From: Escherichia phage 1W
DNA: 49,662 bases
Sequence record: OM475428
Direction: 5' to 3' (one strand)
In this document: positions 33,426 to 37,205 of the stretch, piece by piece
How the letters are laid out: every line of letters begins with the position of its first letter
Numbering within the stretch: the first letter of the stretch is position 1
Program-made: the position numbers and the translations under genes
The notes under the pieces: generated by a model
What the model saw: only the letters and a program-made list of their open reading frames with translations
Told to the model about the DNA's origin: nothing
Database searches by the model: none

Positions 33426-33836
33426 TTAGTGATTCAGGCCGTTGCCGCGTCCGTCGAGAAAAACTTCCACGAGCAAATCACGGGTATAAGTGCGCTCGAT
33501 GCCGCGATGCAGATAAAGCCGTCCGCGTAAATTAGCTGATGCAGTCCAGGTACCATCTTTGTGTTTGACCAGCATTCCTGGCATGACCGCACCGCGATTA
33601 ACGGTCTGCGTTCCGTAATGTTGATGAACCATAAAAACTCCTGCCCGTAAGCTGGGCTGCTGAACATATAGAGACTTCTGCGCGTATTCAGGCGGTGGAT
33701 GGCCGCCGGTTGTCATAACTAAGCCGCCTCGTTGAAGCGACTGAGGTATGAGGTGTTGAGTTGATTTCAGCTGGTCACACCGACGTTCACGCGTCCGCTT
33801 CACCCCTCGCACTCCCCGGAGCCTGCTGAAATTCAA
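33426..33836 (-). CDS. Hypothetical protein at the first position of the leftward early operon; true start uncertain (the track start is TTG; in-frame ATGs give 96- or 68-aa products)
   Basis: Located directly downstream of the inferred OL/PL region; the conceptual N-terminus is Arg-rich ([15 protein letters not shown]) but precedes the first ATG. Confidence 0.35.
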
Positions 33837-33899
33837 GCTGCGGATCTAAGCGGTCATCGCAACGGTGAATCAGGTGATTGCCGTATCGTTGTGTTGTTG

Positions 33900-34030
33900 C
33901 GACATGGTGATAATAGCTATTGTTATTGGCTGTATCAATACTTATTGCTATTGATTGATGTGTTTTGATATTAACTGTTTGATAGCAAAAAGAATTAATT
34001 TTGTGACTTGTATCGCATAGCGATAACTGA
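33900..34030 (-). promoter_or_regulatory. Candidate OL/PL operator-promoter region
   Basis: Contains GCTATTGTTAT (33916-33926) and TTGCTATTG (33945-33953), which recur in the cI-cro intergenic region (36344-36354, 36342-36350), plus the near-palindrome TATCGCATAGCGATA (34011-34025). Confidence 0.5.
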
Positions 34031-34071: not shown

Positions 34072-34105
34072 GGGACAAAAGAAAACCCGGCACGGTGGCC
34101 GGGAT
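34072..34105 (-). terminator. Intrinsic terminator ending the cI-linked operon (timm-like)
   Basis: On the minus strand the stem cccggccaccgtgccggg is followed by ttttcttttgt, immediately after the stop of the 125-aa gene. Confidence 0.7.
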
Positions 34106-34107
34106 TC

Positions 34108-34485
34108 TTACGCAGGTAGGTAAAGATATGATTGTGGTGGCTTAATATTACTACCTAGAGCAGAGATAGGAATTGGTTCTTTATATCTTTCCACTTCACC
34201 AATTTTTATTGCGTAGGCCTTTTCTCTACCTGAATAATATGAGTCATAAAATTGCTTAGAAATACCTGCGTGTTTTTCCGTCTTTTTCCAAAGAGATTCC
34301 GGTTCGTCACTTAGTATTGATTCAATACGGAATTGACCAACAACTTTACCTAATGGCATCGTGGCATAAATAACAACGGTGCTAATTTGCGGATTTTTGA
34401 ATATACCTTTACGAAACTCGAACCGCTTTGTTCCGTTCAATATTTTTTCTGCAAACTCAGGCTTAATGGATAATAAAACTTTCAT
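34108..34485 (-). CDS. ASCH-domain (PUA-like fold) protein; second gene of the candidate cI-linked accessory operon
   Basis: 125 aa; N-terminal pattern MKVLLSIKPEFAEKILNGTKRFEFRK is typical of ASCH domains; AT-rich; start overlaps the upstream gene by 23 nt. Confidence 0.6.
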   Translation of the reverse strand: MKVLLSIKPEFAEKILNGTKRFEFRKGIFKNPQISTVVIYATMPLGKVVGQFRIESILSDEPESLWKKTEKHAGISKQFYDSYYSGREKAYAIKIGEVERYKEPIPISALGSNIKPPQSYLYLPA

Positions 34486-35536
34486 TTATCTTGCCTAACT
34501 CGATGATCTTTAAGAACTGCTCATTTGTGAGTTTAAAGTGACTCCATCGGAATGCACGCGAACCATTTAGCCCCACATGATCTATTAAAATAGCACGATT
34601 GGGTCTCTTTGGCAAAGACAGATTGTATGTGAATCTTATAATGAAAGGGTATCGACGTTCTTTATAGATTTTTCTGAGTTCATCTTCAGAAAATACGCTA
34701 AAACGAATACAATAGTCTACAAAACTATCTTCGCTTAAAAATTCAGAAATATTTTTTACGCTCTCAACTACACATAATGTACTGGCTACAGAACGATAGC
34801 GAGCTGGCCCTTTTTTGTCTCCGGTTCTATAGATGACAATGATATCTCCTCTTTTCATTCCCATCACAGAACGCATTCCACATATGTAAATTTTATGAAT
34901 GCTGTTAGCATGGGATATATCTTTGACAATATCTGGTGATTCATTTACAAGTTTTGAATCAGGGAATAGTCTAGTGTGATATTCGGGATAAATCGCCAGT
35001 AAATATTTGTTGGCCCTTGATGTCATTATTCGAGGGTAATCTAATAAAATATCACCATAAGGCTCATGCAAAGACCTCGCATATACAAACTCTTTCCCGT
35101 TATGTGTTTCTTTTTCACCATGAATGTAAAATCCGTACGTTTGGAAAAGTTTTATTAGATGGACGTGTTTGTCGAAAACAGTAACATAAATATCATCAGA
35201 TTTTGATGAAAATGCATGGTCAAACGCTTTTTTTAGAAATCGTTGTCCGCGAAGGGTGCCTTTAGATTCAAATTTGAATGTTCCTATCTTTAGATGACGT
35301 CCTGGTGGGAGCGCTGGATTAATGTCATTTGCATCATCATTTTCTTTTAGATACATAAAACCTTCGATTTTATGCTTGTCATCATAGAGCACATAAGCTG
35401 ATTCTCCTTCTCTGGCTTTTTTTTCTAACCAAAGAGGAAACTCTTTATAATCTTTTTTTAAAGAGTCAAAAAATGGGTCATTGTGATCAAAATCAGAGAA
35501 TTTCTCATATTTTAAAGTATCCATTAAGTTCTCCAT
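34463..35536 (-). CDS. 357-aa protein with N-terminal GNAT-like acyltransferase-type motifs and an uncharacterised, possibly PUA-like, C-terminal region; first gene of the candidate cI-linked accessory operon
   Basis: ATG 68 bp downstream of the cI stop, same strand; motifs LRGQRFLKKAF and HLIKLFQTYGFYIHGEK resemble GNAT motifs A and B; AT-rich relative to the phage backbone. Confidence 0.5.
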   Translation of the reverse strand: MENLMDTLKYEKFSDFDHNDPFFDSLKKDYKEFPLWLEKKAREGESAYVLYDDKHKIEGFMYLKENDDANDINPALPPGRHLKIGTFKFESKGTLRGQRFLKKAFDHAFSSKSDDIYVTVFDKHVHLIKLFQTYGFYIHGEKETHNGKEFVYARSLHEPYGDILLDYPRIMTSRANKYLLAIYPEYHTRLFPDSKLVNESPDIVKDISHANSIHKIYICGMRSVMGMKRGDIIVIYRTGDKKGPARYRSVASTLCVVESVKNISEFLSEDSFVDYCIRFSVFSEDELRKIYKERRYPFIIRFTYNLSLPKRPNRAILIDHVGLNGSRAFRWSHFKLTNEQFLKIIELGKINESFIIH

Positions 35537-35604
35537 TCTAAAATGAATAATTAAGTTGTTTTACTGAATGAGCACAATGCCCGGTTGATAATTTTTAATT
35601 GGTA

Positions 35605-36297
35605 CTATCCATGCTTCCTATACGTCTGCGGCATGCTCCCAATAACTTTCCCGAAGATAAATACCCGGTTCATCTCATCTTTCTCGATCGGGTCCCACGG
35701 TGAGTAGCTTTTGTTATCAGAGATAACCAGCAGCTTATCCTTCATCATTTGCAGGCGCTTTACATGGGCTGTGTCGTCGTACAGAAACGCATAGATACCA
35801 TCACCGTCGAAAGATTTAACCGTGATATCAACGAATAGAAGATCACCAGGTTCAATCGTTCCTGACATGCTGTCACCGCGTACGTTAATGATGCGGATAT
35901 TTTCTGCCTTCCTACCATCGAACATGTGACGAGCATCGTCAAACGAGTACTCAACCGAGCGTAGAACTTCTACAAACTCACGGTTGATGACTCCCGGCCC
36001 GGCACTCACTTCTATATCAAGAACGTCAATCTTGAAGTATTTGGGATGGTTGGCAGTAGGCTTCCCTAATTGTTGACCGTCATTTCTCATCGGGCCTATG
36101 CCTGATGAGAGCCACTCTGTTCGAACACCCAATGCATTAGCTATTTCAACAATTTTTGTTGAGCCGCGCGCGTTGCCGCTTGTCAGTCTCCAGATTGTGG
36201 GTTGAGCTACGCCAGACGCCTTTGCAAGAGCGCCTTGAGACATTCCAGATTGTTCCATCGCTAGGTTTAAGCGATCAGCAAGAGTTTCTTTTTTCAT
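35605..36297 (-). CDS. cI: CI-type repressor (HTH plus LexA/S24-like autocleavage domain)
   Basis: HTH QGALAKASGVAQPTIWRL; C-terminal S24 features (VRGDSMSG with the catalytic Ser, Lys in HVKRL); ATG at 36297 preferred over the TTG at 36333; divergent from cro. Confidence 0.85.
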   Translation of the reverse strand: MKKETLADRLNLAMEQSGMSQGALAKASGVAQPTIWRLTSGNARGSTKIVEIANALGVRTEWLSSGIGPMRNDGQQLGKPTANHPKYFKIDVLDIEVSAGPGVINREFVEVLRSVEYSFDDARHMFDGRKAENIRIINVRGDSMSGTIEPGDLLFVDITVKSFDGDGIYAFLYDDTAHVKRLQMMKDKLLVISDNKSYSPWDPIEKDEMNRVFIFGKVIGSMPQTYRKHG

Positions 36298-36407
36298 AAG
36301 TTTTAATTTATACGCTTGCGTATTGATGGTCAAAACACGTTTTGCTATTGTTATGATTAATACGCATTGCTATTATTTATTCATTGTAATACCAATAGGA
36401 ATTAATA
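36298..36407. promoter_or_regulatory. OR / PRM-PR operator-promoter region
   Basis: Divergent cI/cro intergenic region with palindromes ATACGCTTGCGTAT (36310-36323) and CAAAACacGTTTTG (36331-36344), and repeats shared with the OL region. Confidence 0.6.
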
Positions 36408-36635
36408 ATGACAAATCAAACCATTCAACTCGCAATCAGTATTACAGGTAGTCAAAAACGACTGGCAGATCTATGCGGTGTAGCCCAGCCCACTGTTTGG
36501 CGTTGGCTACACGGTGGCGGAATTGATGCCCGCTATGTAATGAAAATTGTCTCAGCCACTGGTGGAAAGATTAAACCAGCAGATATTCGTCCCGACCTCG
36601 CACCATTGTTTAACGCGAGTAATTCTGCCGCCTAA
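36408..36635 (+). CDS. cro: Cro-like repressor
   Basis: 75 aa; HTH (QKRLADLCGVAQPTVWRWLHGG); divergently transcribed from cI. Confidence 0.8.
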   Translation: MTNQTIQLAISITGSQKRLADLCGVAQPTVWRWLHGGGIDARYVMKIVSATGGKIKPADIRPDLAPLFNASNSAA

Positions 36636-36659
36636 TCTGCGGCGTTAACTGATAAGGCA

Positions 36660-37205
36660 ATGACTATGCAACCACTTACATACCAACAGACTAGCGGATT
36701 TAGCCCGACTGCGGTGATAAATCGTTCTCAAACAAAACAGGCGCCAGGCCACGAAAAAATCCGTGATGCCGTTCGCGCCTGGTCGGCTGCAGATAATCAG
36801 GATGTTGTTGCCGCACTCATTGTGAATGAGTATCGGGAGCAGGGCGGCGGCACCATCGATTTTCCTGATGATGTCAGCCGTGCACGCCAGAAGCTGTTCC
36901 GCTTCCTCGATAACAAATTCGATTCTGAAAAATACCGAAATAACGTGCGTGAACTGACCCCGGCAATTCTGGCGGTACTACCGCTGGAATATCGCGGCCA
37001 CCTGGTTGAGCAGGATAGCTTCATGGCTCGGCTGGCTGAAATGGAAAAGGAACTCAGTGAGGCAAAACAGGCTGTCATTCTCAACGCACCACGCCACCAG
37101 AAACTGAAGGAGATGAGTGAAGGCATTGTGTCGATGTTTCGTGTGGACCCGGATCTGGCTGGTCCACTGATGGCGATGGTCACCACCATGCTGGGGGCAA
37201 TATGA
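36660..37205 (+). CDS. Regulatory protein at the cII position (not lambda CII-like in sequence)
   Basis: 181 aa immediately after cro and before O; coiled-coil segment near the C-terminus; family uncertain. Confidence 0.45.
   Translation: MTMQPLTYQQTSGFSPTAVINRSQTKQAPGHEKIRDAVRAWSAADNQDVVAALIVNEYREQGGGTIDFPDDVSRARQKLFRFLDNKFDSEKYRNNVRELTPAILAVLPLEYRGHLVEQDSFMARLAEMEKELSEAKQAVILNAPRHQKLKEMSEGIVSMFRVDPDLAGPLMAMVTTMLGAI

Follow-up and report, generated by a model that had tools for sequence, protein, structure and literature searches.

The two overlapping genes directly downstream of the cI repressor gene of Escherichia phage 1W (sequence record OM475428, whose 49,662 nucleotides (nt) make up the window analysed here) are, judged by profile matches, a catalogued module of the GNAT-EVE plus ASCH type, PDC-M11 or GevTA, that is, one of an already known kind. 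Both lie on the minus strand, gevT at 34463..35536 as its longest open reading frame (ORF; 357 amino acids (aa) in the ORF listing of the window) and gevA, which encodes a 125-aa ASCH-domain protein, at 34108..34485. The PADLOC model PDC-M11A matches GevT at 2.1e-133 (residues 6-356 against profile positions 10-356 of 357), and PDC-M11B matches GevA at 6.8e-52 (residues 1-123 against positions 1-122 of 132); the sequence and structural features of the class are present, namely full-length profiles for both proteins, an N-terminal GNAT-like domain, a fused C-terminal PUA-like domain and an ASCH gene in the operon. That both are real genes follows from their homologues, 1631 and 2443 proteins at E<=0.001 in searches with the two proteins.

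The same DNA is found, without differences, in Escherichia phages Lambda_4C10, 4A7, D2 and 3W and, at 99% identity, in IdasGreatGrand and PhiR47_2; the record of the latter (PV340567.1) labels the pair "GevT toxin" and "GevA antitoxin", with a protein identity of 100%, "Gev" being presumably short for GNAT-EVE. Bell et al. 2020 (BMC Biol, PMC7641849) described operons that encode a (PIN)-GNAT-EVE fusion protein and, with few exceptions, an ASCH protein as well, predicted them to be a toxin-antitoxin system, noted that the PIN-less GNAT-EVE form is common in beta- and gamma-proteobacterial prophages, credited the class to Iyer et al. 2013 and stated that all these modules were experimentally uncharacterised. 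An earlier reading of the window made from its sequence alone (the sequence-only reading) had been unable to match the pair to any named system; PDC-M11, the operons of Bell et al. and the GevT/GevA labels of PV340567.1 now supply such matches, and the novelty claimed there was therefore overstated. In PHROG, the pair matches families 6345 and 3136, which have no assigned function; the matched families as a whole either lack a known function or bear the label 'acetyltransferase'. No experimental study of the pair was found in the literature searched under gene, system and domain names; apart from a PADLOC call in a preprint on O157:H7, PDC-M11 is absent from that literature, and ASCH and GNAT are unmentioned in four papers that cite Brenes & Laub 2025 (three on defence-system discovery, one on urinary temperate coliphages).

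The two proteins of the pair

GevT itself gives no Pfam match, and in NCBIfam it reaches only PaiA and PseH, both below threshold; its family profile, in turn, matches the GNAT enzyme PaiA (spermidine/spermine acetyltransferase) at 1.6e-5. The predicted model (pLDDT 87, pTM 0.85) has two domains, and by this model GevT is an N-terminal GNAT acetyltransferase, covering approximately residues 1-151 of the 353-aa form, followed by a C-terminal PUA-like domain of the EVE/ASCH type at approximately residues 173-353. The GNAT-like character that the sequence-only reading had given to the N-terminal half of the 357-aa product is thus upheld by the family profile and by a confident model, and the C-terminal half, which it had left unassigned, appears by structure to be a second PUA-like domain in the pair. 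The best solved match of this domain is the ASCH protein of Zymomonas mobilis (ZmASCH), the same template as for GevA, rather than any canonical EVE structure, and GevT gives no match to the Pfam EVE model. Residues invariant throughout the family are found both in the GNAT half (W32, K79, K84, Y113 and E145) and after it (P164, H183 and K211), and this distribution suggests that both halves of GevT have working sites. In a single case, E. coli E138 (NZ_AP022351.1 2035184-2038959), an IS1 element lies inside gevT and gevA is intact, an arrangement that fits a costly toxin gene.

The assignment of the 125-aa product to the ASCH domains, proposed in the sequence-only reading, holds: GevA matches Pfam ASCH at 2.5e-8, and its family profile matches the crystal structures of ZmASCH, its closest solved relative (34% identity), at 5.6e-18. 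Its AlphaFold model (pLDDT 96) has the ASCH beta-barrel fold, for which ZmASCH is the best structural template, and the octapeptide GxKxx[E/T/S]xR with the catalytic Lys and Glu/Thr is intact as GxKxxExR (G18, K20, E23 and R25). These four residues are invariant across 50 family members, as are Y40 and S119, which correspond to ZmASCH Tyr47 and Ser128; the latter are required in ZmASCH, reported as a single-stranded RNA ribonuclease, for nucleic-acid binding and cleavage (PMC5615036). A recent preprint (10.64898/2026.02.27.708502) reports that all 19 of the 19 ASCH proteins assayed, ZmASCH included, removed N4-acetylcytidine (ac4C) from E. coli tRNA in vitro, that the Lys/Glu pair is essential for this tRNA deacetylation, and that the free ac4C nucleoside is not hydrolysed by ZmASCH. 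In NCBIfam, GevA also aligns at 2.8e-15 with profile positions 191-310 of 311 in NF008917 (50S ribosomal protein L22/unknown domain fusion protein), which is the C-terminal 'unknown domain' of that family, a match that hints at an ASCH subfamily tied to the ribosome or to RNA.

Relatives, carriers and genomic slot

The pair is a conserved, mobile two-gene module. An ASCH gene accompanies the GNAT-EVE gene in all 80 of the genome loci compared, which come from Proteobacteria, Bacteroidota, Firmicutes, Acidobacteria, Verrucomicrobia and Campylobacterota, and in 77 of them it lies directly downstream, its start falling 13-19 nt before, or at most 20 nt after, the end of the matched GNAT-EVE coding region, so that a short overlap like that of phage 1W is almost universal among them. 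In three loci from Vibrio and Photobacterium (L013, L017 and L022), the ASCH gene is found at a distance of 0.4-2.6 kb and in the opposite orientation. Among 108 diverse relatives, Pfam detects GNAT in 18, EVE in 7, a fused ASCH in 13, PIN in at least 8 (PIN_3 in 8, PIN_4 in 3) and TIR in 1, a domain set that places them in the same class as the proteins of Bell et al. 2020 (PMC7641849). Single-chain fusions occur in two orders, PIN-GNAT-EVE-ASCH (GevA profile match of its ASCH part, 1e-32) and ASCH-PIN-GNAT-EVE, and each fused ASCH retains the GxKxxExR motif. The 355-aa gene that precedes the pair in P2-like prophages of Klebsiella was considered as a GevT paralogue and rejected.

The pair is common, being present at an identity of at least 99% in 275 of 5426 complete E. 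coli genomes (~5%), among them O157:H7 EC4115 and an ST131 strain, where it is always chromosomal, single-copy and linked to the same cI/cro as in phage 1W. In lambda-like, Rac-like and P2/186-like prophages alike, it follows the repressor gene, directly so in the Rac-like prophages of Salmonella and Klebsiella and with the integrase on its other side in the P2/186-like prophages of Klebsiella and E. coli. Further, very different temperate carriers are the Lactobacillus prophage Lj965, Lacticaseibacillus phage P7.1 and the archaeal phage psiM100. In Lj965 (L085 3307-5402), the pair follows directly on four phage tRNA genes (Ser, Glu, Tyr and Phe) and precedes the terminase genes, a neighbourhood that may be due to chance and would be suggestive if tRNA were the target. 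In filamentous, inovirus-like prophages of the Vibrio harveyi group (L094-L096), the Rep_trans/Zot genes stand shortly before the pair, and the next gene after it encodes a 169-aa AAA_17/AAA_18 protein with a weak VakA-like PADLOC match (1.2e-8). The P2-like Salmonella phage SopEΦ (L084 3944-7233) carries the pair as orf12/orf13 and, next to it, homologues of ShosT and ShosA as orf14/orf15 (ShosA, 4.6e-71), all between the replication gene A region and the portal gene.

The pair is associated with defence genes, and its description as a candidate defence module stands at that candidate level with the PADLOC entry PDC-M11, the ShosTA neighbour in SopEΦ and the PIN and TIR fusions of relatives. 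Its origin as horizontally acquired cargo, also proposed in the sequence-only reading, is in agreement with base composition and with the presence of other cassettes in the same slot of sister phages and prophages: at 35.2% GC, the pair lies below cI (46.4%), exo-bet-gam (51.8%) and the whole window (50.0%), and among relatives GC content is lower in the pair than in its flanks in 72 of 73 loci, with a mean difference of 10 points.

In phage 1W, two AT-rich genes do follow cI in the position equivalent to that of rexAB, and they overlap by 23 nt, out of frame, at 34463..34485 (minus strand), where translational coupling is likely; both features had been read from the sequence before. The cI repressor gene, directly upstream of the pair at 35605..36294 on the minus strand (its ORF is extendable to 36333), encodes a helix-turn-helix and S24 peptidase protein (Peptidase_S24, 1.5e-18; HTH_3, 1.5e-6), for which PV340567.1 gives the annotation cI (690 nt) and EC4115 that of an S24 family peptidase. 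The gap of 68 bp previously given between the cI stop and the pair is correct for the longest ORF of 357 aa and fails for the likely start: because homologues are ~353 aa long in nearly all cases and a Shine-Dalgarno GGAG (35534-35531) sits 6 nt upstream of the ATG at 35524, gevT probably begins at M5, which would give 34463..35524, a protein of 353 aa and a gap of 80 nt. This cI-gevT spacer (35525..35604, minus strand) is weakly structured (-8.8 kcal/mol); a terminator scan found no terminator-like site between cI and gevT and a consensus scan no promoter-like site in the spacer, and the weak internal sites are at chance level (8 found against 8.2 expected in the consensus scan).

Past gevA, the strong intrinsic terminator recognised earlier is found as a hairpin (CCCGGC...GCCGGG, 34103..34086) with a T-run, together at 34076..34103 on the minus strand, with 6 G-C pairs and a predicted energy of -15.6 kcal/mol; it begins 4 nt past the gevA stop and would close a cI-gevT-gevA unit. 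Beyond it, at 33905..33995 (minus strand), lies the inferred OL/PL. The half-site TTGCTATTG is present in 33916-33953 and again between cI and cro in 36342-36374, the half-sites TTGCTATTG and ATAGCAA being common to this site and to the OR region, and a sigma-70-like site with a 10/12 match is located at 33938..33910 (minus strand); the shared half-sites and the promoter-like site support an OL/PL just past the terminator, as the sequence-only reading had supposed, and place the cassette inside the immunity region, between cI and OL/PL.

Lambda-like prophages use this cI-to-OL slot as a hot spot for swapped cassettes that are toxin-antitoxin-like or candidate defence systems. In PhiR5_1, it holds a HipA-like kinase with a DUF3037 protein (annotated HipA/HipD; PDC-M66), in PhiR30_1 the candidate PDC-M63 (a DUF6932 protein and its partner), in PhiR70_1 a three-gene cassette with an MqsA-like protein, and in E. 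coli prophages with a cI of 95-97% identity either two small ORFs or the gene of a DUF7946 protein or BamE-like lipoprotein (slot cargo of sister phages and prophages: L088 3642-5215, L089 3617-4971, L087 1860-3382 and L103-L105). Such swapping makes the slot useful for finding uncharacterised systems. The surrounding immunity region is a mosaic, since the cro and cII positions (36408-37205, plus strand) are taken by YdaS-type (9.6e-15) and YdaT-type (7.6e-30) proteins, as in Rac-like prophages, beside recombination genes (exo, bet and gam) and replication genes (O, P and ren) that are lambda-like. No N-like antiterminator gene is found between the inferred PL and kil (33426-33905, minus strand). 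A 136-aa ORF at 33426..33836, ~270 nt from the gevA terminator, has an arginine-rich N-terminus and no Pfam match; it is annotated as a 129-aa Kil in PV340567.1, and RefSeq takes its last 68 aa alone as a cell-division inhibitor. The Rfam gathering scan and the tRNA scan returned nothing in the whole window.

Writer/eraser acetylation and rival explanations

On balance, we find it moderately probable that GevT and GevA form a mobile toxin-antitoxin-like conflict module, carried as lysogen-expressed cargo in the cI-OL slot and acting by writer/eraser acetylation. The cI transcript would read through gevT-gevA and stop at the terminator (34086-34103). The PUA-like domain of GevT would bind a base in RNA, most likely tRNA, or in DNA, and its GNAT domain would transfer an acetyl group from acetyl-CoA, yielding N4-acetylcytosine or an acetylated aminoacyl-tRNA; at a high level, GevT would thereby block translation or replication. 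GevA, through the Lys/Glu pair of ASCH amidohydrolases, would strip the acetyl group and keep the lysogen healthy, until a second infecting phage upset the balance, so that the cell or the invading nucleic acid became acetylated and the infection aborted. Read-through, toxicity and defence are what we infer, and all the steps after read-through transcription are put forward as a hypothesis.

The more specific chemistry, in which GevT would write an acetyl mark on a nucleic-acid base (e.g. N4-acetylcytosine in tRNA, rRNA, mRNA or DNA), its PUA-like reader would pick the target and GevA would erase the mark, is possible but doubtful. The eraser role of GevA, for which the retained Lys/Glu pair and the precedent of ASCH tRNA deacetylation can be invoked, is still speculative. 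The key question, to which the fusion of GNAT and reader, the intact ASCH pair and the preprint on ac4C in tRNA all point, is whether a nucleic-acid base is acetylated by GevT and then freed of the mark by GevA.

Several points weigh against this mechanism. Toxicity, neutralisation, defence, co-transcription and the activity of either protein are predictions from sequence and context; the names GevT and GevA are those of the depositor, with no supporting paper found in the accessible literature, and PDC-M11 is a PADLOC candidate rather than a validated system. The GNATs nearest to GevT by sequence are polyamine or protein acetyltransferases, with no tRNA or nucleic-acid acetyltransferases among them. 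In the alignment with PaiA, in which positions were counted by hand, Phe127 of GevT stands opposite PaiA Tyr141, a position which we take to be that of the usual general-acid tyrosine of GNAT chemistry, and the catalytic competence of GevT is therefore an assumption. The link between the C-terminal domain of GevT and GevA is weak at the sequence level (hhalign: 29 columns, E 2.7e-4, probability 42%), so that their homology, weakly shown by sequence alone, leans on the predicted structure. ZmASCH has also been reported as an RNase, and GevA may therefore not be a deacetylase. Moreover, ZmASCH was rejected as a member of a GNAT-EVE operon: its gene lies 48 nt downstream of a 375-aa gene (L082 4825-6447), and the product of this upstream neighbour is unlike GevT (BLASTP E ~5) and without Pfam or PADLOC match. 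The 375-aa protein may be a different partner for a GevA-like ASCH.

Three rival explanations were weighed, and all of them receive a lower weight than the writer/eraser mechanism. The foremost, which we hold to be unlikely, is a classical type II toxin-antitoxin system, in which GevA would neutralise GevT by binding, perhaps by docking on or mimicking its ASCH-like domain, without enzymatic reversal, and degradation or titration of GevA, in an infection or once the prophage is lost, would release the toxin. Toxin and antitoxin are the depositor's own terms for the two proteins, and Bell et al. 2020 (PMC7641849) predicted the class to be a toxin-antitoxin system. The tight overlap and likely coupling resemble those of many toxin-antitoxin operons and protein complexes, and ZmASCH is the best structural template for both GevA and the C-terminal domain of GevT. 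Nevertheless, the ASCH catalytic and ligand-binding residues are all invariant in GevA, the toxin gene comes first and the ASCH gene second, and a DNA-binding domain is absent from this form of the module. GevA is, in addition, more conserved than GevT in 63 of the 80 loci (mean identity 55.2% against 51.0%); higher conservation of the antitoxin than of the toxin is atypical for sequestering antitoxins, and this suits an enzyme better. The covalent fusion of ASCH to GNAT-EVE in some relatives, with GxKxxExR kept, is likewise easier to reconcile with a working enzyme or reader than with a removable plug.

Still less credit is given to a tool serving the phage itself, in which the nucleic acids of the host or of competitors would be marked or poisoned by GevT (e.g. 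against restriction), or the pair would be an addiction module only, without protection from superinfection. Bell et al. 2020 (PMC7641849) suggested that phage GNAT-EVE proteins may guard against host restriction-modification and that PIN-containing host versions counteract them, and the occurrence of the pair in many phage types, also at sites other than immunity operons (in filamentous prophages, and ahead of the terminase gene in Lj965), would agree with such a use. However, at least three prophage lineages place the pair in the repressor operon, on in lysogens rather than in lytic growth, its cargo slots are common to known or candidate defence systems, and its models belong to the PADLOC set of known and candidate defence systems. 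A non-conflict accessory function, by which the pair would tune host tRNA/RNA acetylation (ac4C turnover) or polyamine acetylation as lysogenic conversion without toxin-antitoxin behaviour, is very improbable, since the facts that recommend it, PaiA as the nearest GNAT by sequence and ASCH proteins as ac4C erasers on tRNA (preprint 10.64898/2026.02.27.708502), are set against strict pairing, mobile low-GC cargo, PIN/TIR fusions and defence-gene neighbours, all typical of conflict systems, and against a writer kept with its own eraser for no obvious metabolic purpose.

Comparison with known systems

The closest system is the GNAT-EVE plus ASCH module catalogued as PDC-M11, with which the phage 1W pair shares the architecture, the gamma-proteobacterial prophage habitat and full-length matches to the hidden Markov models, and from which it shows no structural difference, although some GNAT-EVE relatives have a PIN domain or an AAA_17 partner and GevTA has neither. 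TacT/TacA, AtaT/AtaR, KacT/KacA and ItaT/ItaR are GNAT-fold type II toxin-antitoxin systems whose toxins acetylate aminoacyl-tRNA, and GevTA resembles them in having a GNAT acetyltransferase as the predicted toxic part of a two-gene module on mobile DNA. Nevertheless, the TacT-type systems combine a single-domain GNAT with an upstream ribbon-helix-helix (DUF1778) antitoxin, whereas GevT is a two-domain protein with a downstream ASCH partner; a Pfam scan gave no DUF1778 or ribbon-helix-helix match in the pair, and comparison with the TacT/AtaT clade gave no specific sequence or structural similarity of GevT to it.

RexAB of lambda is a lysogen-expressed exclusion function, and the likeness of GevTA to it is one of position, downstream of cI on the same strand and ending before OL/PL. 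There is no homology to RexA or RexB, the Pfam, PHROG, NCBIfam and PADLOC scans having given no Rex family; PADLOC yielded PDC-M11 models and no others, and Pfam nothing but ASCH. RexB is a membrane protein, whereas GevT and GevA have no membrane annotation or match in these general scans, no dedicated membrane search having been made. With the ASCH amidohydrolases and ac4C erasers (E. coli YqfB, the Thermus thermophilus ASCH protein, ZmASCH, EOLA1 and TRIP4), to which the GNAT enzyme TmcA belongs as ac4C writer, GevA shares the ASCH fold and the GKER-type octapeptide with its Lys/Glu pair.

In DarT/DarG, the toxin ADP-ribosylates DNA, the macrodomain antitoxin removes the mark, and the system acts against phages by abortive infection. 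GevTA would share with DarTG the proposed logic of a writer toxin and an eraser antitoxin acting on nucleic acid; the two differ in that there is no homology between them and in the mark, acetylation in GevTA as against ADP-ribosylation in DarTG. If the more specific mechanism, with a mark on a nucleic-acid base, is true, GevTA would be the first toxin-antitoxin or anti-phage system built on the reversible acetylation of a nucleic-acid base, and thus the acetylation counterpart of DarTG, and it would provide a biological role for the widespread bacterial ASCH deacetylases.

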